Shown: positions 1-64,000, counted from the first letter of the stretch. The stretch is 64,000 nt of DNA from Promethearchaeia archaeon (GCA_046483985.1 JAWOCD010000017.1:32001-96000); one strand, 5' to 3'. Notes: generated from the sequence alone by a model not told the origin. Numbers and translations: made by a program.

Positions 1-70
1 CCTTTTCCTCAACCATATTTAAAGAAATAAAAAATTAAATATGTATTTAAGGGTTACGGAAAATACAAAA

Positions 71-343
71 TTAGCTATTCTTATTTTTTTCTTTGGAGTT
101 GATTTCCTCAGTGGTTTCTTCGGAGAAATAGACAAAAACAAGGGAAATCCCAAATGCAACGATTAGGGTAAACGGATCAGCACCGATCATTGAGATTACA
201 AAAATGGCAATACTTATTGTAATAAGAAGCGAGTAACCAATGATTTTCCATTTAGTTAGCTCCTCTTCTTCCGAGGGTTTCTCAATTTCGGCTTTCTTTT
301 TGACTGGTTTTGAATTAATAGGTTCTGATCCATTCATTTTCAA
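71..343 (-). CDS. small membrane protein (2 TM), unknown function
   Basis: 90-aa ORF with two hydrophobic segments flanked by charged termini. Confidence 0.6.
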   Translation of the reverse strand: MKMNGSEPINSKPVKKKAEIEKPSEEEELTKWKIIGYSLLITISIAIFVISMIGADPFTLIVAFGISLVFVYFSEETTEEINSKEKNKNS

Positions 344-9521: not shown

Positions 9522-9923
9522 TTATTTCAGAAATATGGTCTTTTCTAAATTCTCGAAATGAGGATCCCCAGAAACTACAGAAAGATCATTATGGAAAGCA
9601 GTTTCAATAATACTTGCATCTGCCAAACCTATCTCCTCCATTGATTCTCTTAATTTCCACTTTCTTGGACCTGAATTTTTTGCAACTTCGATTGAAAGGG
9701 GAACAATTTTAGAATTGGAGATAATAAATTTATAACGTTCTTTCCATTCAACATGCAGTCCTTCTCGATAATACTTATCGGATAATTCAGCAATTGAAAT
9801 GATTGAGGTATAGATTTTTCCGTTCTCAATTAAATTCTTAACCGTTTTTCCTTTCTTACTTCCAATAAAATATTCAATCCAAGCAAACGTATCCAAAAGA
9901 TATTTATTCTTCTCTGAAGACAA
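9522..9923 (-). CDS. vapC: VapC-type PIN-domain toxin
   Basis: LLDTFAWIEY, SIAEL, LADA, SGDPHF acidic PIN motifs. Confidence 0.9.
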   Translation of the reverse strand: MSSEKNKYLLDTFAWIEYFIGSKKGKTVKNLIENGKIYTSIISIAELSDKYYREGLHVEWKERYKFIISNSKIVPLSIEVAKNSGPRKWKLRESMEEIGLADASIIETAFHNDLSVVSGDPHFENLEKTIFLK

Positions 9924-10107
9924 TTCTATCCTCTCTTTTAAAATGTTGAAGTTTTCCTTTATCTATCCCAAACATGCTTTCAGGAATATTTTGAGACTTA
10001 TCGATAAGTTTATTGATAAGTTCATCATATGTAGATGTTTTAAAAACTTTCTTCAGTTGTTTTAATTTTTCCAAGGTATCTTTTGTAATTTGAATGGAAG
10101 TTTTCAT
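9904..10107 (-). CDS. RHH-like antitoxin (VapB) overlapping the toxin
   Basis: MKTSIQITKDTLEKLKQLK..TYDELINKLI; 67 aa, directly upstream of the PIN gene. Confidence 0.8.
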   Translation of the reverse strand: MKTSIQITKDTLEKLKQLKKVFKTSTYDELINKLIDKSQNIPESMFGIDKGKLQHFKREDRIVFREE

Positions 10108-10136
10108 ATATAATCTATAGCACTATAGTTATATAA
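10107..10136 (-). promoter_or_regulatory. palindromic operator overlapping the TATA box of the TA operon
   Basis: tatataa-t-ctatag-ca-ctatag-ttatata inverted repeat; TTATATAA on the minus strand ~22 nt before the ATG (leaderless geometry). Confidence 0.6.
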
Positions 10137-10232
10137 TTTTATCTAAAATATCTAGTATTTTTTAAATTTAGATGATTTAAAATTTTGAATTAGCCTTTAA
10201 TGATAAAAAAAAGAGATTAAGGTATGAATAAC

Positions 10233-12203
10233 TTAAATTGTGGTAAAAACCAACGTACCGGAATTATAAATACTCGGAAGCAAGACAGAAGCAAGCAACG
10301 CTAACAAAAATGAGGTAAAAACTACACCTGATATAATACATCGGGTCTTAAGATAAATCCACGAACTTATCATCGACATACCCAAGAAGAGCAAATAAAA
10401 GATTGGAATCACAAAAAATACAATTGTTGGGAAAAATTGGAGTGAAATTAATAGCAATAAATAGGAGATTGTGAGTCCTGTTCCACCGATAACTGTATTG
10501 AGTAAATTGGTGTAGAAAAGTTCTCGCCAGGAAGGTATCCATAAGAGTTTTTCCTTTTCATAGCGGGAATATTTAGATTGTATGAGACCATTGAAGAAAA
10601 GTCCATAGATAAAAGTAAAAGTAAAGATAATGCCCCAGATCTCTAAAAATCCAACAATTTTATAGATAATTAATGATTTTATTCCATATAGGGTTAAACT
10701 TACAAGCAATGGAATATATATGGCTAAAAATAAGCCCACTCCATAAAGAAGATTCCTTTGAAGTTGGTGGGGTTTTATTTCCAAACCGAAATCTGCCCAA
10801 GTTTCGTAATATGTTTTTCGCTCAGTATAAATAAGACCCAAAAGTACGGGAAGGAAAATTAAGGCATGAGTAAAGAGGAGTATCGTAAAGATATTGGTTA
10901 CCATAAAATCGGTAACAATTAATGTATTTAAAGAAAAGACAGAAATTAATGGAATCACTAAGGCGTTGGTTCCAAGGTATAAGGCAATATAAAGTAAGAT
11001 CTGTTTTTTAAAATCTTTTTTCTCAATCTCCTTAGCAGCCTTAATATTTGACTCCTCAGTGGAAACTTTATTGGCTAAATAGATAGATAACGGGATTGCT
11101 AGGAGAATAACACCAATTAGAGTGATCCTATTTCCTGTTTTTCGTTCCGTTTCATTTATGTCGTTAGAATCTAATTCGTTGGCATTTGGATCCATAAACA
11201 TGGAATTTTTCATCCATCGAATTGATTCTTCAATTGCTCCTTCATTTTGTCCTTCAGTTATATGGTCTTGTCCTTCTAGGATAACTAACCTTCGTGCGCT
11301 GCCATCTAAAAAGCTCCCGTAGGTTTTTTCGCTCTCGATTTGCTTGTAATCCGATGTTCCGAAAATAGAGTCTCTGCCGAGATTCCATACAAGTTCTTTT
11401 GCACTTTCAACTGTAAATATCTCATCACTATCGCCGACAATATTAAGGAAATTTCGGGGGATGTTGGTTTTACTTTCGTTCAATTTATCCTTAATGATAA
11501 TGTTTTCAAAGGCAGCATCGATATCATAAGTTAACGTCGGATAAAGCCAATTTTTTACCTCATCGAATCGTTCTAAATGACTGAGAACTCCGTCATTTAT
11601 ATCTTCATCTTGTACATCATATTGGGGACCTCCGACGGTGAGCGTGGTATTAATCCAATGATTTCCCAATTCATGATCTATAAGTGAGGCTAAGGTAACC
11701 GAGAAAGCTCCCATTGAGTGTCCCACCACTCCAATTCTGGAGAGATCGATATTATATTTGTCCGCATTCTCACGCAACCACTGAACCGCGCTCAGAGTTT
11801 CATTTTCCCAAGTAAATCCAAACTGTCCGCTACTTCCCCCGTGTCCTCTTCCTGAAATACAAAACCCGATAAATCCTCGTTTCCCGAATTCATTAGCAAA
11901 ACTTTTAAAATAGGTTTTACTGCTTGAAAATCCATGAACATAAACGATTGCGGGACGCTTCTCATATATGTCATTCCTTTCCTTTGGAAGATAAAGTGTA
12001 CTATCGATCTCAATATTTTCTCCAAATACTCTAAATTCTGGTGCCGTTTGTATTTGAAAGTGTTTTTCATTACATGAGAAAAAGGAACAATTGAAAAGAG
12101 TAGTCCAGCTAAGTCCAATTATTGTTAACAATAAACCCACAATAAAAAGAATTTTTTTTGCTTTTTCTATTGTGTTTTGTTTAATAGGAAGAATATCTCT
12201 CAT
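10233..12203 (-). CDS. membrane-anchored alpha/beta hydrolase with C-terminal multi-pass TM domain
   Basis: VHGF, GRGHGGS, GHSMG nucleophile elbow, GDSDE, QDHI; N-terminal TM and about 8 C-terminal TMs. Confidence 0.85.
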   Translation of the reverse strand: MRDILPIKQNTIEKAKKILFIVGLLLTIIGLSWTTLFNCSFFSCNEKHFQIQTAPEFRVFGENIEIDSTLYLPKERNDIYEKRPAIVYVHGFSSSKTYFKSFANEFGKRGFIGFCISGRGHGGSSGQFGFTWENETLSAVQWLRENADKYNIDLSRIGVVGHSMGAFSVTLASLIDHELGNHWINTTLTVGGPQYDVQDEDINDGVLSHLERFDEVKNWLYPTLTYDIDAAFENIIIKDKLNESKTNIPRNFLNIVGDSDEIFTVESAKELVWNLGRDSIFGTSDYKQIESEKTYGSFLDGSARRLVILEGQDHITEGQNEGAIEESIRWMKNSMFMDPNANELDSNDINETERKTGNRITLIGVILLAIPLSIYLANKVSTEESNIKAAKEIEKKDFKKQILLYIALYLGTNALVIPLISVFSLNTLIVTDFMVTNIFTILLFTHALIFLPVLLGLIYTERKTYYETWADFGLEIKPHQLQRNLLYGVGLFLAIYIPLLVSLTLYGIKSLIIYKIVGFLEIWGIIFTFTFIYGLFFNGLIQSKYSRYEKEKLLWIPSWRELFYTNLLNTVIGGTGLTISYLLLLISLQFFPTIVFFVIPIFYLLFLGMSMISSWIYLKTRCIISGVVFTSFLLALLASVLLPSIYNSGTLVFTTI

Positions 12204-46038: not shown

Positions 46039-47130
46039 TTAGATGATTTCGTAATTTACGGGGAGGCCATCCCTTTGTTTTTCCATAAATTCATTAATCA
46101 ATTTAAGATGTTCTGAAAATTGATTAAAGGAAATTTGTTCATCTTTATATCTCTGAGTTATATTCTGGATGATATAGGCGGGAGTAAATTTAATAAACCG
46201 AATATCGGAGAACAAGATGACCTTCCCTTGCCCTTCAAAAATATAATTCCCCTTGAGTAAATCGTCTAAGACATCTTGTCTATTATTGAGAATATTTAAA
46301 CATTCGTTCACGGTGAGAACTTCGTTTCTCAATTTTTTAATTAAGGAAAATATGGGTTTATCCATTAAAAAGTGCAAGATTCTCTTATTTTCAATTTCGG
46401 ACGTACAGTCGAAGGTTGCGTAAAATTCTTGAAACTCATTTATATACGTATCATACAGTCCCCCATCCTTGTCTGAAATCGTAAGCTCATGGGGAGGGAT
46501 TCTAATACAAGATAAATCCTTTATAAGAAAGTAACAGTTGTCACACCCGGGGATATTTTTCTTTTTAACTAAACCCTCGCGTATAAATGTACTAAGAATT
46601 AAATCAATATTTGAGGTTGAGAATCCATATTGTTTCCTTAAAAGGGATTTCAATTGAATCTTGGAGAGGACCCCTTTTTGGAGAATCTTTAAAATGGTGT
46701 GTTTAATCTTATCGCGGAAAAAACTCAGAAGATTTTCTTCTTTATCTAATTTTGTATAGTTTTTAAGCGTGGTATATGCTTCACTAATAGCCCTTGTAAT
46801 TTTATTGGAATTGATTAACTCCACTAAATTCTTACTTATAATACCGATTATATCTGGATTATCTTGGATTACATCTTTTACATGATCTTGATCTGTATAT
46901 TCCACCATTAAAAAATAAATCTCGCCCTCAAATTTATGGATAACCGAGATATAACTGTGCTCATTTTTCTCTTCAGGGGTATAATTAATCATAGATTCTG
47001 CTTTATTCAATTCGTGTTTTGCCCAGATTTTTAGAAAAAGATCTTTAGAAGGGAAATTATGTTCTGGGGGATACTGGATAATTGCCTCAGGACCTGTAGA
47101 TTTATTCCAATGCACAATTATAAGTCTTAT
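46039..47130 (-). CDS. uDENN/NPRL-type longin + tandem winged-helix protein (probable ATA start at 47130; ORF track starts at GTG 47115)
   Basis: IRLIIVHWNKSTGPEAIIQYP longin beta1-beta2; two WH-like regions; GGGGTGAT SD 5 nt before the ATA. Confidence 0.6.
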   Translation of the reverse strand: MRLIIVHWNKSTGPEAIIQYPPEHNFPSKDLFLKIWAKHELNKAESMINYTPEEKNEHSYISVIHKFEGEIYFLMVEYTDQDHVKDVIQDNPDIIGIISKNLVELINSNKITRAISEAYTTLKNYTKLDKEENLLSFFRDKIKHTILKILQKGVLSKIQLKSLLRKQYGFSTSNIDLILSTFIREGLVKKKNIPGCDNCYFLIKDLSCIRIPPHELTISDKDGGLYDTYINEFQEFYATFDCTSEIENKRILHFLMDKPIFSLIKKLRNEVLTVNECLNILNNRQDVLDDLLKGNYIFEGQGKVILFSDIRFIKFTPAYIIQNITQRYKDEQISFNQFSEHLKLINEFMEKQRDGLPVNYEII

Positions 47131-47132
47131 TT

Positions 47133-48929
47133 CTAATCACCCCTCCCTTCTGCTTTAACCTCAACGAGTTCTGGGATTTCTGGTATCAATTCGAAATATT
47201 TTCTTTGGAAATGCCGTTCAAGAATAGGATCAATCCGTTTTTTCCATAAATTTACATCAACTCCGGAAAAGGCTTTATCTTTAAGAGAGAACTTCCGTTC
47301 AATATCTTCTATAAAATGATCTAACTTATTCCTTAAAATTCGTAATTCTTCTGTTAAAATTAGAGCAAATATCAGTTTCTTGTTTTTGCTGAATCCAAAC
47401 AATATTTTTTTTCCGCCGTGATCGATTACCCTTAATTTTTTTTCTTCTTTCGTAATTTCTTGTAGCATGGTAATGAGTCCGATAAAACCCCCACTTGCTA
47501 AGTCTGATTCTATCGCATCTTCATCAATGGGTTTAAATGACTTTTCATAGAGGAGCATTCCAGATTCATGAATTACAAACAAATGAATGAGATAATCGGG
47601 CCAGTTTTGTTCCTTGGGATTTACTGTTTCCTCAATATTAGAAAGTAGAAAGAGACTAATTATTGAGCCTAAATTAATTACTCCAATTATAAAGATTTCA
47701 CGGGTGTATTTATTCGCAAAAAATGTTGTTGGGATATTCATCGCAGTGAAAAGACCCAGAATGATACTAAAAAGCATAACAGCGAAAGAAATGCCAAATA
47801 CCTTTCCTAAGTCTTTTCGCTCTGTTATGTCACTCATTAACAAGGGAACTGTCATAAAGCTCGCTAAAAATGCAGCAAAAAATACGGTCAGTCCGAAATA
47901 AGGTATATTAATCTCAAATAATCTGAGGAAATTCACAATTGAAATCGCTAAAATGATGCTTGAAACCGTGGTTTTTCTTCCATAAAAATCGAACACAGCA
48001 CCCACACTGATTCCTGTTATTAAAGAAAACGAGACAGCAATAAAGACCACTACAAATGTGAGAACACTTGGCCATTCTCCAAAATAAAAAATCTCAATAT
48101 CTACTATAAAAAAATTGGTAAGCATTCCTATTGTAAAACCAAAAAAGGCGATCATTATGATATATTTGATAATTCGAATATTGATTTCGGTTGAATCTTT
48201 ACCAATAACTATTGGTTTGTAGGGCTTTTCTTCTTCTTTATTTTTATAGAGATAAATAATGGCGCCAATAATGATTAAAACGGGCAGCGTGATAAGGATT
48301 TCATTAGCTATTAAAAAGAACATAATACCTAGGGTAATAATTAGTAAGATAATTAAATATGAATATACACGACCACGTTCTAATATTGTGGTGAAATCAA
48401 TAAAATAAGTCGCTAAAAATATGTAAAGTATCCCTGCAATGACACTATTGGTAAGAAAAAAGAGAGAAGGAACTAAATCTCCGGTTCTTCTAAAGAATCC
48501 TATATGCAAAGTAGTAATTAATACAGATAAGAGTAAAATTTTGAAAAGCAATGGATATCTTTTTCCTTTAACTTTATCTAAAGTAAAGCCGCCGATCAAA
48601 AAACCAATTGCCACACCGATAATAATAAAAAAACCCGATTGTAACGGGAAATTCCTATAAGCTCTCGTACCAAGATCTATGGTCAAAAATATGTCAATCA
48701 TAAGTGTGGAGGCAAAACAAACAGCTATGAGATACAGCGTAAGAAACTGCTTTTTTGTGATTTCGATATCTTTAAATAATCCTTTATACGTCTTCTCCGT
48801 TTGTTTTTTAATATATTCTCTAATTTTCTCTTCATAAATCTCTTTTTCGAGGCTGTGTTTTGAATCCTTAATCTTCTTCTGATTTTGATCCTTCCCGTTT
48901 TCTTGCTGGTTATTTTCCATTTTTTTCAT
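47133..48929 (-). CDS. MFS-fold 12-TM transporter fused to a C-terminal longin domain
   Basis: GFTLDKVKGKR and GAVFDFYGRK motif A; HLFVIHESGMLLYEKSF..DLASGGFIGLITMLQEI..IDHGGKKILF longin. Confidence 0.8.
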   Translation of the reverse strand: MKKMENNQQENGKDQNQKKIKDSKHSLEKEIYEEKIREYIKKQTEKTYKGLFKDIEITKKQFLTLYLIAVCFASTLMIDIFLTIDLGTRAYRNFPLQSGFFIIIGVAIGFLIGGFTLDKVKGKRYPLLFKILLLSVLITTLHIGFFRRTGDLVPSLFFLTNSVIAGILYIFLATYFIDFTTILERGRVYSYLIILLIITLGIMFFLIANEILITLPVLIIIGAIIYLYKNKEEEKPYKPIVIGKDSTEINIRIIKYIIMIAFFGFTIGMLTNFFIVDIEIFYFGEWPSVLTFVVVFIAVSFSLITGISVGAVFDFYGRKTTVSSIILAISIVNFLRLFEINIPYFGLTVFFAAFLASFMTVPLLMSDITERKDLGKVFGISFAVMLFSIILGLFTAMNIPTTFFANKYTREIFIIGVINLGSIISLFLLSNIEETVNPKEQNWPDYLIHLFVIHESGMLLYEKSFKPIDEDAIESDLASGGFIGLITMLQEITKEEKKLRVIDHGGKKILFGFSKNKKLIFALILTEELRILRNKLDHFIEDIERKFSLKDKAFSGVDVNLWKKRIDPILERHFQRKYFELIPEIPELVEVKAEGRGD

Positions 48930-58775: not shown

Positions 58776-59246
58776 TTACTTTTTTACTAACTCTTTCCCT
58801 TCTTCTTGCCACTTTTTGATTGATTCCGCTGAAGCTCCCTTGACAATGGCGGCCAACTCTTCGGGATCTTCCCGTAATATACCTTGGACGGAATTAACAC
58901 CTACAAGTTTGAGCTTCTCATCAGTCGCAGAACCTAATCCATCTAATTCGGTTAAATCGACCGGTTCTCGTTTCACCTTTGGCTTACGCCTCTTCTTTGG
59001 TTTTTTAGCTCTTGGTACGAATGGTTCTCGCTTCTCTTCCTCTTCGGGTAATTCGAGTTCTTTTAATTTCTCAATATTCCATTCATACGCACTCCGTCTT
59101 CGTATATCAACTCTTATGCCATGCTTTTTGAGATCCTCAACGCTGTGTCCGGATTCCTTAACCTCCTCAATCGAAAATCCGTAACCTTCTCGTGGCTTTT
59201 TGGTCCGATGGGGCGATTTAACGATCGGTTTAATTTTATTTTCCAT
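58776..59246 (-). CDS. rpl13e: 50S ribosomal protein eL13 fused to a C-terminal helix-hairpin-helix domain
   Basis: PIVKSP..REGYGFSIEE..VDIRRRS..NIEKL; DLTELDGLGSATDEKL HhH. Confidence 0.88.
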   Translation of the reverse strand: MENKIKPIVKSPHRTKKPREGYGFSIEEVKESGHSVEDLKKHGIRVDIRRRSAYEWNIEKLKELELPEEEEKREPFVPRAKKPKKRRKPKVKREPVDLTELDGLGSATDEKLKLVGVNSVQGILREDPEELAAIVKGASAESIKKWQEEGKELVKK

Positions 59247-59331: not shown

Positions 59332-59973
59332 TCATGATGAGAATGAAATGATATCCAAATCCTCTAGCTTTTTAAGAATTTCGTTAACCTTGCTCCGACT
59401 AGTGGCCAACTTTCTGGAAATAGCCAAAGGTGAATTTTTCCCGTCACATAGTAGCGCGACTTGAAATTCAAAATCTTCAATCATACCCATAGAAAGAATT
59501 TTCTCCAAAACGTTACGTACCAAGAGCAATTTAGGAAAAACTTCGGCAATCTTACCCCCTAAGGTGAGATTTTCAATATCTGCGGTGAATGATTGGAATC
59601 TCGTCTTTTCCGTGGTGATGCGATAGGTTTTTAGATCAGATTGATGTTTTTTCCAAAACCGCTGCCCGATTTTATGAAGGACTTCTTTAATCTTTTCTGT
59701 CTTATCATCAGCGTCTGAAATTGCACAAAATAAAATTCGGGAGAGGGGATGAAAATAAATAACAACGGTTGATTCTTCCGAACGGATTTCCCTGGTCATT
59801 TCATCGATACGCCTTCCCTTTGCCATTGCTTCTTGCAAATTATCGATTGTACGGTTGACGATATTGAAAAAATTAGTTATGAGGGTATCATCGATCTTTT
59901 TTAATTTGACGAAGGTGGTCTCTAAGAGGGAGATTCCACCGTCACCGTCAATAAGATAAACCTTATAAATCAT
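59332..59973 (-). CDS. longin + winged-helix protein, NPRL2-like
   Basis: KVYLIDGDGGISLL longin start; HPLSRILF..SDADDKT; LLCDGKNSPLAISRKL..ILKKLEDLDII WH; GGTGAGG SD. Confidence 0.7.
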   Translation of the reverse strand: MIYKVYLIDGDGGISLLETTFVKLKKIDDTLITNFFNIVNRTIDNLQEAMAKGRRIDEMTREIRSEESTVVIYFHPLSRILFCAISDADDKTEKIKEVLHKIGQRFWKKHQSDLKTYRITTEKTRFQSFTADIENLTLGGKIAEVFPKLLLVRNVLEKILSMGMIEDFEFQVALLCDGKNSPLAISRKLATSRSKVNEILKKLEDLDIISFSS

Positions 59974-60102
59974 TTCTGCCTCACCAATAGAAGTACTTCA
60001 GAGAAGTGCTTGAAAGGACCATCTTTTCTCAAAAAACTAAATTATATTAAAATAAATAATTTTACTAATTTTATAATTAAGTATTTCATTTTATAGATTT
60101 GT

Positions 60103-61440
60103 ATGAAGAGAGTAAAAGTTTTTATTTTTTTCTATCTGATTGGTTTTTTCCCCTCAATATCGACTTATTTTCTCGTAACAACCCCAGATATTTCTAATCA
60201 CGCCACATTTCATTTACAAAATGAAAACAGCGTCAGCAAGTATGAAAATCCGCAAAATGTAACCTATAAAATCGAGACATCATTAGTTTTACAAAACTCC
60301 ATCGAACTAGGAGACTATTATTTTAAAAATGCCAGGGTCGACAATAGAACTTTTGATTCGCAATTAACGCCGCGTGTCCCTCCATATCAGATTTCTAATT
60401 GTGAGTCCCTCAACATTAATGGTAATACCACGTCAATACAGTTTCAACAAGATAGATTCAATAATACCTATGATTCATTTAATTCGACCTCCCTTAACGA
60501 AGGAAGCGAAATTACAATCGATTACGAATATGAAGTGACCCTCAATGAAATCTTGTTTGATAATATTACGGAAAACGATATTGGCGAATATGATCAATCA
60601 GAAAAAATCTTTGACTTGTACTGCAATAAATCGGTGGAATATTTTAATACATCGGATCCCGATTTAATCAATCGTGCGGACTCCATTGTTGATTCCGGTG
60701 ATAATCCAGTCGAGAAGGCAGAAAAGATTTTTGATTGGATAATCGAAAATATCGAATATGATGAAACCCTCGATGAAGAAAAAGGCGCTACCTACGCATA
60801 TGCAAACAGAACGGGAGATTGCAGTGAGTTTTCTGATTTAATGGTCACGCTTCTAAGAATTCAAGGCATTCCGGCTAGAAAGGTTACAGGGTTTGTATTA
60901 ACTAATAATCCATTGACTGAACTAGAGGAGGAACAAGAATGGAACTACGATCTATCATATGATTCTAATAGCCAAACTATTAGTTCAGATAATCCATATC
61001 TGGGTCATGCATGGATAGAATACTATGTTCCTCAAGTGGGGTGGATTGCATGCGATCCCACGTGGGGCGTCCAAGCAGAAGAGCAAGAGGAAATGGACTA
61101 CTTTAACCGAATTGATTATCTTCATTTCGGAACGACTGTAGGGTCTCACATTCCTTATCCTCCTGGTGAAAATTGCAGTGAATTTCCATTTTTACCAGAA
61201 CCGGTTGTATTAATAGGGGGTTCAGAATATCTTTATGAAGTAAATACCAAAATTACTATTTTAGAAACCAATTTAAGCCTTTCGGATAGGGAACCCGAGT
61301 TATGGATGATAGTTTTGAGCATTATCCTTGTCTCCGCAATAATAGCGGGCATTATTGGGACGATAGTTATCATTATAAAAAAAGTCTATAAAAACGACGA
61401 GCGTCACGAAGTCAATACAAGTGAGAGATCTTATATGTAA
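60103..61440 (+). CDS. secreted, membrane-anchored transglutaminase-like protein
   Basis: GDCSEFS, GHAWIE and CDPT catalytic triad; signal peptide and C-terminal TM. Confidence 0.9.
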   Translation: MKRVKVFIFFYLIGFFPSISTYFLVTTPDISNHATFHLQNENSVSKYENPQNVTYKIETSLVLQNSIELGDYYFKNARVDNRTFDSQLTPRVPPYQISNCESLNINGNTTSIQFQQDRFNNTYDSFNSTSLNEGSEITIDYEYEVTLNEILFDNITENDIGEYDQSEKIFDLYCNKSVEYFNTSDPDLINRADSIVDSGDNPVEKAEKIFDWIIENIEYDETLDEEKGATYAYANRTGDCSEFSDLMVTLLRIQGIPARKVTGFVLTNNPLTELEEEQEWNYDLSYDSNSQTISSDNPYLGHAWIEYYVPQVGWIACDPTWGVQAEEQEEMDYFNRIDYLHFGTTVGSHIPYPPGENCSEFPFLPEPVVLIGGSEYLYEVNTKITILETNLSLSDREPELWMIVLSIILVSAIIAGIIGTIVIIIKKVYKNDERHEVNTSERSYM

Positions 61441-62840
61441 GTTTTGATTAACTCGTGAATAATATTAGAGAATTCGGGAATTTCCTCTTCGATTTGTTCT
61501 ATACTTTGGAATTCTTCCATAAAGAGCATGAGGTATAATTTATATTTCCCGACGTTGATTCGTTTAAAGACCACTTTTTTAGCCTCATCGGTTATTCCGG
61601 ATGAGACAATAAAATTTTGCTTGAGTAATTTGAATTCCTTAAATGTTTTATATAGGGTTTTAAAATGAGGTGCTGACAGTTCAAACACTTTTCCAAATAC
61701 CTCATCCTTTGCATAATTGGCCAGAATAATGCCATTTTCATTTAATAATAAGATTGCGTCAGAATCAGTTTTATTGGCGAATATTCGTAACTGCTGCTCA
61801 AACAAATCTCTATTTGGGCTTAACTGCGATAACCCAAAGGAATATGCAGAGATTAATGACCATCGATCAAAAATAGAGGTTTTAAATATTTTAATAAAAA
61901 AGTCTTCGGAATATTCGTTGAGCTTATCCTTCAATTTATCAATGTTGTTGTTAATTTCCGTAGATTCTTGTAAGTCGGGGTCGTATTTGTTTAAACAAAT
62001 AACAATTGGGGGTGATTCATTTAATTCTTTTAAAGAATTGATAATATCTTTATAAAGCTTTAATGCCTCATTCATTCGTTCACTATCTTGTACATCAATA
62101 ATATAGAATAAAAGATCGATATTATACAAGTAGATCTTACTTTGTTTAATATATTTATCCCGGTAGCGCTTTTGACCCCCGAGATCCCAAATAGAAATTT
62201 GAGAATTTTGTTGGGAGAACAATTTTTCCTCACTTCTATCTAATCCCTTGGTGGGAAGAAGTTTTATAATTTCGGAATATTTTTCTTTTATCGCTTTGAG
62301 GAAGGACGTTTTTCCCGCGTAATCAAGACCTGCATAGACTATCTTAATTTTTCGCTTTGCGGAGAGCGGATTTTCCAAATCTTGGGTAAATTCCATCAAT
62401 TCCTCTTTAAGCGCGTCCATTATTTTCCTATATTCCTCTAAGTCTCCAGCAGCTTGAAGAAGTGAAGCGGTTTTATCGATGATAATCCTTAAGTATTTCA
62501 TATTTTCATAAAAAAAGCTGGTGTTATCCTCGTCTATTAAGACGGTAATTGTGCTGGCTTTTGCTTGCCCCCTGGCTTTTTCATCAGCAATCAAGAAGAA
62601 ATATGTTAATCCAATTAATCCTAAATCAGGAAATGGAAGTATTCCAAAATAATTTACGCCTTTAATTTCTGTGCCGTTTTGATAAACAGCATCACCCATC
62701 AAAAGGGAAATTGTTTTCATTGCAATCAATAAACGATGAGCTTCATCAATATCTTTAGGCCAATAAACCTTGGGAGTAGGTCCATCGTCATCAAAGACAG
62801 AAAGAATAATTGATTTAATTACTGTATCATTCTTTTCGAT
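61431..62840 (-). CDS. folliculin/SMCR8-type longin + Rag/Arf-like small GTPase + roadblock fusion (probable ATC start at 62840; ORF track starts at 62729)
   Basis: G1 GLDYAGKTS, G2 PTKG, G3 WDLGGQ, G4 NKYD, G5 TSIFD; Rag-like C-terminal roadblock; longin IILSVFDDDGPTP..FLIADEKARG; SD AAGGAGGAG at 62855-62847. Confidence 0.85.
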   Translation of the reverse strand: MEKNDTVIKSIILSVFDDDGPTPKVYWPKDIDEAHRLLIAMKTISLLMGDAVYQNGTEIKGVNYFGILPFPDLGLIGLTYFFLIADEKARGQAKASTITVLIDEDNTSFFYENMKYLRIIIDKTASLLQAAGDLEEYRKIMDALKEELMEFTQDLENPLSAKRKIKIVYAGLDYAGKTSFLKAIKEKYSEIIKLLPTKGLDRSEEKLFSQQNSQISIWDLGGQKRYRDKYIKQSKIYLYNIDLLFYIIDVQDSERMNEALKLYKDIINSLKELNESPPIVICLNKYDPDLQESTEINNNIDKLKDKLNEYSEDFFIKIFKTSIFDRWSLISAYSFGLSQLSPNRDLFEQQLRIFANKTDSDAILLLNENGIILANYAKDEVFGKVFELSAPHFKTLYKTFKEFKLLKQNFIVSSGITDEAKKVVFKRINVGKYKLYLMLFMEEFQSIEQIEEEIPEFSNIIHELIKTYI

Positions 62841-63111
62841 TGTATACTCCTCCTTTATGAATTAATAGAGATTCGATTATCAGCGTGAAAATCTCAATTT
62901 TTTTCTCAAATATGCGTTTCCTTCTAATCAAAGTTTACGTTTTTTATAAATTAGTTTTCCATTTAAAGGTTTTTTTCCTTAAAATTTTTAACGAGTTTGG
63001 TTAAATAATTTTCAATATTTAATAAAAATATCCAAAATATCCAATTACTATGAATAAAGAAATAATTTAATTTTAAAAATTTAATCTCATGGTTCATTTC
63101 TCTATTTTTTT

Positions 63112-64000
63112 TTAAATCCGGAACTGGACGCATGAAGGGGATAATTCACCTAAAATATCCTCTAATATGTCATTAAAACCATTTTGGGAATCAATGTTAA
63201 TACGTATAAAGGAATTAATGATATTAGAATTCAAAATTGATTGCGTTTGCAGAGATTGGATATTATCAAATCGTAAACTTCTTTTTAATTGGGCAGAATT
63301 GAGATACCCCTTTTTTGACTTGAGATTATCGTTGTTGATGAATCGTTTCACCTTTTTTGGGAAGTGGCGAGTATCCAAGTTTAGAAATCGCTGATTTATG
63401 TATGTCGAGAAGTTTTCAAGAAGGACAAACTTTTTATTCTGTTCTTGTGTAAGCTTTTTGCATTTTTCTCTAATAAATTCGAGTACTTTCTTTCCCAAGA
63501 GAAACGAGCTTTCATTATCTTGGAGATATGCCCCAGTTAAGTTATAAACTGTCCTATTTAATCCAATAACGCTAATAGCTAGTTTTTGGCCCCTTAAATT
63601 CAGAAGATTGGTACCATTTAACGATCCGCTGCATAGAGGTAAGTGCCCCGAGTTAATCCGATTTTGGATGATTTCATATTTCTTTAAGAGGATATTGGCA
63701 CAAAGATCTAAACTCTCCTGAAGAGAGTCAAAAAATTTGGTTTCAGAATGGGTTTTATAACTTATTCGGGGAAGATTAATGCTTATATTTTGCAAGGTAC
63801 CGTAATTCAAGTATCCTGATTGCTCGATGATCTCATGTAAATTGGATTTTTGATGGAAATTTTTAAAATACGGAGATTCCGCATTCTTGATTTCATCCCA
63901 GAGTTGAGAATAATCATCTCTGCTTGAGTTTATCTTTTCCGGAGTAAAGCATATTATATGTTTGGGATTATTAAAGGGTTCTGAATTATAATCGCCTTCT
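63112..64000 (-). CDS. class III ribonucleotide reductase (NrdD)-like barrel, degenerate; 5' part lies outside the window
   Basis: frame open to the window edge: EGDYNSEPF..SPYFKNF..GTLQNISINLPR..SVIGL..RFLNLD..YLNS; no finger-loop Cys, Zn ribbon or glycyl-radical motif. Confidence 0.65.
   Translation of the reverse strand, partial: EGDYNSEPFNNPKHIICFTPEKINSSRDDYSQLWDEIKNAESPYFKNFHQKSNLHEIIEQSGYLNYGTLQNISINLPRISYKTHSETKFFDSLQESLDLCANILLKKYEIIQNRINSGHLPLCSGSLNGTNLLNLRGQKLAISVIGLNRTVYNLTGAYLQDNESSFLLGKKVLEFIREKCKKLTQEQNKKFVLLENFSTYINQRFLNLDTRHFPKKVKRFINNDNLKSKKGYLNSAQLKRSLRFDNIQSLQTQSILNSNIINSFIRINIDSQNGFNDILEDILGELSPSCVQFRI

Follow-up and report, generated by a model that had tools for sequence, protein, structure and literature searches.

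The window, by which we mean the whole 64,000-nucleotide stretch of DNA that was analysed, carries a gene for a longin-Rag-roadblock GTPase (P0164), a membrane-anchored transglutaminase-core gene, the gene of a longin/winged-helix (WH) protein that we call P0001, and rpl13e, in which L13e is fused to a helix-hairpin-helix domain (Table 1). The frame of P0001 is open over its full length, and the two peptides that an earlier, sequence-only reading of this DNA had quoted from the product were found at residues 72-103 and 145-202. A search returned 423 homologs of P0001 at E<=1e-3, nearly all of them 205-228 aa long, and we therefore consider the gene to be real. Identity to P0001 was 63-87% among the 120 matches listed, and those of them with a source name were each a 'hypothetical protein' of Promethearchaeota or Lokiarchaeota. 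As described before, P0001 runs in the same direction as the upstream Rag-like GTPase gene, which stops at 61431, 1457 bp away, and as rpl13e 85 bp downstream, the sole L13e match in the genome. Between the GTPase and P0001, on the opposite strand, lies the transglutaminase gene, which is divergent from P0001 and shares 10 bp with the 3' end of the GTPase gene. Within the window, the P0001 gene is preceded by its own AT-rich upstream region. Sequencing runs gave small shares only (<=0.14). A salt-lake metatranscriptome contained one 271-nt contig inside the GTPase gene (62159-62428), and no sequence of the RNA library covered P0001, an observation with no bearing on expression either way.

Table 1 Features of the P0001 locus, with positions counted from the first nucleotide of the window.
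Feature	Position	Strand	Basis
P0001 gene, 213 aa, longin + winged helix	59332..59973 (stop codon included)	-	ORF and translation, homologs, AF2 model
P0001 longin domain, residues 1-137	59563..59973	-	DSSP of AF2 model, VIA-align, profiles
P0001 winged helix, residues 146-213	59335..59538	-	Pfam, AF2 model, VIA
Codon (CGA) of Arg79, which ends the β4-β5 turn HPLSR	59737..59739	-	Sequence and AF2 model
Longin-Rag-roadblock GTPase P0164, 469 aa, ATC start	61431..62840	-	Pfam, PDB sequences, ortholog alignment
N-terminal longin domain of the GTPase	62448..62840	-	20-ortholog alignment, AF2 pLDDT 84.3, Foldseek
Membrane-anchored transglutaminase-core gene	60103..61440	+	Pfam Transglut_core 1.3e-24
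L13e fused to helix-hairpin-helix domain	58776..59246	-	Pfam L13e 6e-8, HHH_5 1.1e-5; NCBIfam PRK12277 2.6e-17

To describe the molecular architecture of P0001, we employed an AlphaFold2 (AF2) model computed from an alignment of 42 family members. The model reached a pLDDT of 90.3 and a pTM of 0.80 and, together with fold searches, bore out the longin plus winged-helix architecture that had been read from the sequence. P0001 is a cytoplasmic two-domain protein in which a short linker separates the longin domain from a small winged helix, modelled at 146-212. The longin domain is formed by five β-strands (i.e., β1 2-9, β2 15-20, β3 59-64, β4 68-75 and β5 80-87) and three α-helices (i.e., α1 29-51, α2 92-120 and α3 124-137) as assigned by DSSP, in the topology β-β-α-β-β-β-α-α. 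Pfam matched only the C-terminal winged helix of P0001, through TrmB (2.2e-5; 24.6 bits against a cut-off of 25.6) and HTH_24 (1.3e-4; 21.9 bits at a cut-off of 21.9). A near-invariant C176-x-G178 motif precedes the helix-turn-helix, and VIA-align superposed this domain on the winged helix in 3k9t with a Z-score of 9.7 and an rmsd of 2.1. Across the family, TrmB was matched by 29 of the 42 members, with further matches to ArsR, MarR and Rrf2; Longin was matched by 8/42 (best 5e-4), Clat_adaptor_s by 2/42 (1.8e-6) and DUF742 by 3/42 (best 2.6e-4), P0001 itself giving no DUF742 match.

A closer look at the longin domain by VIA-align ranked Sec22b on top (Z 14.8, 127 residues aligned, rmsd 3.2), followed by synbindin and VAMP7 (Z 13.9 each) and Ykt6 (Z 12.6); Fuzzy, the sigma- and mu-adaptins and SRX scored at Z 10-12.5, and NPRL2 (Z 9.1) as well as Lst4 and C9orf72-SMCR8 (Z 9.1-9.8) came lower. 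The family profile searched against PDB sequences gave weak but consistent matches to a VAMP7-type longin (1e-3) and to AP-2 sigma (1.6e-3), and for the winged helix it retrieved several regulators (ZitR, MarR, ArsR and Lrp; E 0.003-0.2). Judging from this structural ranking and from the family-profile and Pfam matches, the modelled longin of P0001 is of the classical SNARE/coat/tether type. Residues D87, D90, F106 and G140 are invariant throughout the family, and the two aspartates make up the helix cap behind β5 that is common to SNARE and adaptin longins.

The coordinates assigned to the neighbouring GTPase by the sequence-only reading (61431..62840) proved correct, including its unusual start. 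The open frame reaches back to 62861 and offers no ATG, GTG or TTG, the ATC at 62840 is preceded by a AAGGAGGAG Shine-Dalgarno site, and an alignment matches the 37 N-terminal codons thus added to the N-termini of every one of the 19 orthologs. The protein matched Pfam Gtr1_RagA (2.3e-27) and, among PDB sequences, the 'GTP-binding protein' chains 8yl2 (9.4e-41) and 8zla/9m28 (7.1e-27), of which 8zla/9m28 is LokiRagM, a Lokiarchaeota Rag-like GTPase. Human RagA was matched at 1.9e-14 over the G domain and the roadblock. The genome has a second Rag-like GTPase on contig C126 (99360-100376).

N-terminal to its G domain, the GTPase carries a longin domain of its own. Two motifs of this domain are invariant in 20/20 GTPase orthologs, one of them at 32% identity: G20-P21 (62778-62783) at the start of β2 and A89-R90-G91 in the β4-β5 loop (R90 = 62571-62573). 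The best Foldseek match was the Lokiarchaeota Roadblock-Longin protein 8yqg (5.7e-7, TM 0.75), followed by NPRL2 (1.9e-4) and then by DENND1A, Npr2, Lst4, FLCN-FNIP2 and SMCR8; the first 21 rows held no SNARE or coat longin, and a TRAPPII subunit appeared at rank 22. A weak, sub-threshold Pfam Folliculin match covered the same profile region in the window's GTPase and in four orthologs tested. A profile of this longin returned nothing from PDB sequences at E<=10, and a literature search turned up no publication on the PDB structures 8yqg, 8yl2 and 9m28. The structural matches of the two longins of the locus differ, with NPRL2, FLCN and DENN proteins on the side of the GTPase and SNARE and coat proteins on that of P0001, and we thus conclude that the two are of different types. 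No similarity emerged when the profile of the P0001 family was compared with that of the GTPase longin (probability 0.2). As far as motifs can tell, the marks of a GAP-type longin sit on the N-terminal longin of the GTPase itself and are absent from P0001. A complex prediction for the GTPase and P0001 gave ipSAE values of 0.02 and 0.00, which count neither for nor against binding.

We then compared the locus with 20 others, drawn from the window's own family f1 (7 genera) and its sister family f2 (2), the window being the 21st. The GTPase, P0001 and L13e were found together in 20/20 comparison loci, so that the proposed linkage of P0001 to the GTPase holds in 21/21 genomes of the window's order. 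The arrangement GTPase-[transglutaminase]-P0001-L13e, with L13e co-oriented downstream, is kept in 18/20 comparison loci; in the two f2 loci the L13e match lies on the opposite strand. Five loci lack the transglutaminase gene, and there the GTPase lies directly upstream of P0001 on the same strand at a gap of 102-176 bp. The view of the sequence-only reading that the transglutaminase gene looks like an interruption was not supported. This gene is present in 16/21 P0001-bearing loci and beside the GTPase in 3/3 genomes of genus g10. With these 19/24 loci spread over f1 and f2 alike, it seems to be a long-established resident and not a recent insertion.

The GTPase ortholog is restricted to f1 and f2, with a best E of 1e-52 or lower in 68/75 genomes and weak paralogs only elsewhere. 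Two f1 genomes have the GTPase and no P0001 match, and their contigs end just past the GTPase. P0001 and the GTPase show comparable sequence constraint: identity to the window copy ranges over 44-69% for P0001 and 58-67% for the GTPase in 18 comparison loci and falls to 34% for each of them in the two f2 loci. The flanking transglutaminase, L13e and NrdD-like genes reach 29-62% in local alignments, mostly 31-46%. In genus g10, which belongs to the same order and includes one closed genome, a full-length longin-WH gene is absent and the GTPase and transglutaminase genes are kept; an Arf-like GTPase of 206 aa occupies the slot corresponding to P0001. The GTPase therefore does not strictly need P0001. 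Synteny alone, moreover, does not single out the GTPase, since the linkage to rpl13e is equally constant (20/20) and P0001 has an AT-rich upstream region of its own.

Distant homologs of P0001 occur in other Asgard families at 20-32% identity. In an alignment and a midpoint-rooted tree, the GTPase-linked orthologs formed a clade of their own, drawn from the same order only, and a second longin-WH gene of the window's genome, on contig C37, grouped with the distant Asgard homologs. Judging from these sequence comparisons, P0001 is one branch of an Asgard-wide longin-WH family and confined to the window's order of Lokiarchaeia, and the distant homologs are not its orthologs. The Atlas cluster nearest to P0001 is composed mostly of Thorarchaeota. 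At 20 loci of other Asgard families that carry the paralogous branch, neither L13e nor a transglutaminase was found as a neighbour, and all 20 together held a single small GTPase, 7 kb off in one locus. Instead, the paralogous longin-WH gene adjoins a conserved polytopic membrane protein of 220-290 aa without a Pfam family in 19/20 loci, convergently in 18 of the 19. The homolog of this membrane protein in the window's genome lies on contig C18, away from any longin-WH gene. No ORF fusing a P0001-type longin to a GTPase domain was found in this genome, and we therefore set aside Atlas shape matches to Arf/Ras-fused Asgard proteins (TM 0.56-0.60), which were not used as evidence.

With this information at hand, we asked what P0001 might do. 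The sequence-only reading had taken it for a minimal NPRL2-like GAP that would insert Arg79 into the nucleotide pocket of the Rag-like GTPase, a reading that we now consider very unlikely. Its starting point was sound: Arg79 is encoded where it had been placed and, by the secondary-structure topology of the model, falls into the β4-β5 turn, the loop that serves as the site of longin-type arginine fingers (bioRxiv 10.64898/2026.01.05.697756). The conserved synteny with the GTPase fits such a role, as do the fold searches in part. Foldseek placed Npr2 and NPRL2 at ranks 2-4 among PDB entries (E 1.7-2.6e-4) and aligned only these across both domains of P0001, and VIA paired 187 residues of P0001 and NPRL2 (model 1..212 to NPRL2 6..236, Z 9.1). 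However, the Foldseek alignments, which run over ~255 columns of longin and winged helix, have a TM of ~0.34 and an rmsd of 13-15, and the longin of P0001 is clearly nearer to the SNARE/TRAPP/adaptin type, with Sec22b, VAMP7 and synbindin as its closer relatives in shape.

The residue itself is also less constant than a catalytic role would suggest. Of the 21 synteny-verified GTPase-linked orthologs, 17 have Arg, 2 have His and 2 have Lys at position 79; members of the wider family show H, N, K, E, D, L or P there. Variability of Arg79, which the sequence-only reading had itself counted against its proposal, was thus found in part: 17/21 linked orthologs retain Arg, and the other 4/21 keep a basic residue, whereas Arg90 of the GTPase is invariant. 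A GP motif is present in FLCN, NPRL2, SMCR8 and C9orf72 and absent in FNIP2, NPRL3 and further longins that are not GAPs (PMC12290439). The β1-β2 loop of P0001 (IDGDGGIS; consensus IDGDNGIS) lacks it, and none of the 17/21 orthologs with a recovered N-terminus has a Pro in this loop. Npr2 further employs an auxiliary Asn directly after its arginine (R84-N85; PMC12999518), a position at which all P0001 orthologs have Ile, Val or Met (residue 80). PF06218 (NPR2) had no match at E<=1 in P0001, in the 42 family members or in the whole genome. Finally, the VAMP7-type longin also has an Arg at the column aligned with Arg79 in the HMM alignment, yet it is no GAP. We conclude that a longin cannot be called a GAP on the strength of an Arg in its β4-β5 turn alone, and that the catalytic claim for P0001 is not supported.

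The winged helix invites a different explanation, namely that P0001 is a DNA-binding regulator, e.g. of its own divergent promoter or of rpl13e, with the longin serving as sensor or dimerisation module. The TrmB match and the HTH_24 match at its cut-off point this way, as do the TrmB, ArsR, MarR and Rrf2 matches across the family, the PDB profile matches to regulators such as ZitR and Lrp, and the position of the gene at a divergent intergenic region (59974-60102) and directly upstream of rpl13e. The domain, however, is a minimal one, as P0001 ends at the first wing strand in the AF2 model; it is about neutral (11 K/R against 10 D/E), and the polar residues with which its recognition helix begins vary within the family. 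Winged helices make protein contacts in NPRL2/3 and in ESCRT-II, and we know of no longin domain that acts as the ligand sensor of a transcription factor. We therefore rate a regulator as unlikely. It is decidedly unlikely, in our estimate, that the linkage to the GTPase is incidental and that P0001, like its paralogs, serves some other partner as an adaptor, e.g. a membrane protein or, via L13e, the ribosome. The habitual membrane-protein neighbour of the paralogous branch (19/20 loci) would fit, and P0001 stands beside the sole rpl13e in 21/21 loci and near the membrane-anchored transglutaminase in 16/21. Against it, the membrane-protein homolog of the window's genome is encoded on another contig, C18, and P0001 shares both its narrow taxonomic range and a similar sequence constraint with the GTPase.

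The NPRL2/folliculin-type marks on the N-terminal domain of the GTPase make it more likely that P0001 is a non-catalytic partner. We thus tentatively propose, as the best-supported reading, that P0001 acts through its longin/WH architecture as a non-catalytic partner or adaptor of the Rag-like GTPase encoded nearby. The synteny, the shared restriction to one order and the comparable constraint described above speak for it. The longin of P0001 would then provide a binding platform for the GTPase. It may bind the G domain, by analogy to the docking of SRX, MglB or Ragulator, or it may pair with the GP- and Arg-bearing N-terminal longin of the GTPase, comparable to NPRL3-NPRL2 and FNIP-FLCN, while the winged helix might link this complex to an additional partner. 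Should the GTPase be acted on by a longin arginine finger at all, the most likely one is the invariant Arg90 of the GTPase itself and not Arg79 of P0001. A more specific version, which we regard as unlikely, sees a GAP pocket built from two longins, in which the catalytic half (GP and Arg90) would be fused to the GTPase and P0001 would be the non-catalytic, NPRL3/FNIP-like half. Several observations speak against the partner model: g10 retains the GTPase without P0001, the winged helix matches profiles of DNA-binding TrmB/MarR-type helix-turn-helix proteins, the paralogous branch has no linkage to a GTPase, and the genome has no longin-GTPase fusion ORF.

Among known systems, P0001 resembles NPRL2/Npr2 in its N-terminal longin and perhaps in the winged-helix-like part behind it, in the basic residue that occupies the β4-β5 turn, in the Rag-family GTPase encoded beside it and in a Foldseek E of ~2e-4 across both domains. 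It differs in its length of 213 aa as against ~380, its single winged helix, the missing PF06218 match, GP motif and Asn after the Arg, an Arg79 that is not invariant, and a Z-score that is higher for Sec22b (14.8) than for NPRL2 (9.1). Unlike in GATOR1/SEACIT, no NPRL3- or DEPDC5-like subunit was identified here. With NPRL3 and FNIP, P0001 shares a longin that has neither GP nor a strictly conserved Arg and is encoded together with a longin bearing both, here the N-terminus of the GTPase. No sequence match or specific structural match of P0001 to these proteins was seen, and the role would be one proposed by analogy; the catalytic-type longin is here fused to the GTPase itself, an arrangement for which we know of no eukaryotic counterpart.

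Sec22b, VAMP7, Ykt6, synbindin/TRAPPC4 and the sigma-adaptins score highest in structural alignment (Z 12.6-14.8 over 117-127 residues), and P0001 shares with such longins the D-x-x-D cap after β5 and the hydrophobic pattern of α2; it has no SNARE motif, transmembrane anchor or coat/TRAPP context and carries a C-terminal winged helix instead. The bacterial conservon combines CvnB (Roadblock), CvnC (a DUF742 wHTH) and CvnD (a small GTPase), and MglB-MglA is another system for comparison. Here, too, a platform of the Roadblock/longin superfamily and a small wHTH are encoded with a small GTPase, and the 3/42 members that match DUF742 may hint at a wHTH of this type. In contrast to the conservon, the modules of P0001 are fused, its platform is a longin and not a roadblock, the GTPase is of Rag type, and the neighbouring genes showed no obvious CvnA-like sensor kinase. 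The text of Liu et al. (bioRxiv 10.1101/2020.10.19.343400) describes Asgard 'NPRL2-like' proteins that have a longin with a small C-terminal domain, in most Thor and a few Loki genomes. The paralogous branch of the P0001 family is likewise common in other Asgard families, and the family that they describe may be this one; the Rag-linked Lokiarchaeial branch is not described there.

Longin proteins from Asgard archaea have been published before, and so have NPRL2-like longins and fusions of longin and Rag (bioRxiv 10.1101/2020.10.19.343400; PMC10933270; PMC12290439). For the Rag-linked longin/WH branch, our literature search found no description, and the database names all read 'hypothetical protein'. 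Our analysis also corrects a tempting over-reading, in which an Arg in the β4-β5 turn of a longin is taken as the mark of a GAP. Rag GTPases and their longin-domain GAPs, GATOR1 and FLCN-FNIP, are central to eukaryotic nutrient sensing. If P0001 were indeed the non-catalytic half of a two-longin pocket, the Lokiarchaeial locus would encode a minimal and in part self-contained precursor of the Rag GAPs GATOR1 and FLCN-FNIP. Taken together, the locus offers a small, testable system, in which a Rag-like GTPase that carries its own FLCN/NPRL2-type longin has a strongly conserved longin/WH neighbour, and whether the two proteins bind, and which Arg, if any, drives hydrolysis, would bear on how longin-based control of GTPases worked before eukaryotes.

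In this order of Lokiarchaeia, the longin-winged-helix (longin-WH) gene that neighbours the gene of the Rag-like GTPase is always flanked by the gene of an L13e homolog fused to a helix-hairpin-helix domain, which is the sole L13e homolog encoded in the genome. The transglutaminase gene is convergent with the GTPase gene, and their 3' ends overlap by 10 bp (window 61431-61440). Upstream of the GTPase lies an NrdD-like gene, whose position is retained in 11 of 20 comparison loci from the window's family and its sister family. Genus g10 of the same order shows a variant arrangement: the genes of the Rag-like GTPase and the transglutaminase are separated by that of an Arf-like small GTPase, and a search of three g10 genomes found no full-length longin-WH gene at any position.

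A paralogous longin-WH branch is present across many Asgard families. Its gene adjoins that of a conserved polytopic membrane protein of 220-290 aa in 19/20 loci, the two being convergent in 18 of these 19. No Pfam family was found for this membrane protein, and in the window's own genome its homolog and the paralogous longin-WH gene are unlinked.

Elsewhere in the window, directly following the gene of an MFS transporter-longin fusion, a 358-aa protein is encoded that consists of an N-terminal GP-type longin strand pair (HWNKSTGPEAIIQYP) and a longer C-terminal region. In size and GP motif, this protein is nearer to NPRL2 than the longin-WH protein is; it has no Pfam NPR2 match.

The genome also holds further Rag-like GTPases. 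One of them, comprising a G domain and a roadblock domain (Gtr1_RagA, 1.2e-25), is encoded ~3.4 kb past the window's end, and in most orthologous loci it is found ~3-5 kb past the first. It may be a Rag heterodimer partner. Moreover, the genome encodes a second full-length longin-Rag-roadblock protein (E = 4e-96 against the GTPase profile) and about eight other Rag-like proteins of G domain and roadblock; to our knowledge, none of these has a neighbour of the longin-WH type.

Features of the locus, its variants and related genes
Feature	Location	Strand	Remarks
L13e-helix-hairpin-helix fusion	window 58776-59246	-	
NrdD-like gene	window 63112-64000	-	continues past window edge; PF13597, 4.9e-25
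Shine-Dalgarno (SD) site of GTPase gene	window 62847-62855	-	AAGGAGGAG
N-terminal longin of Rag-like GTPase	window 62448-62840	-	GP and A-R-G motifs
GP-type longin protein	window 46039-47115	-	358 aa
MFS transporter-longin fusion	window 47133-48929	-	
Second Rag-like GTPase	own genome, C126:99360-100376 (= L052:3360-4376)		339-aa open frame
Longin-Rag-roadblock paralog	own genome, C96:3174-4715		514-aa open frame
Arf-like small GTPase	L049:8900-9520		206 aa; g10, closed genome G210
Polytopic membrane protein gene	L029-L048, ~9600-10500 in each		
Its own-genome homolog	C18:6608-7465		

The gene of the Rag-like GTPase itself appears to start with an ATC codon at window 62840 (-), behind a strong AAGGAGGAG site. 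Its 37 conserved N-terminal codons, which include no ATG, GTG or TTG, encode β1 and the GP motif of the longin domain. The GP and A-R-G motifs of this domain are both invariant (20/20 orthologs), and its structural matches include the longins of NPRL2, Npr2, FLCN, SMCR8 and DENN proteins. The GTPase may carry a built-in longin of the GAP type.
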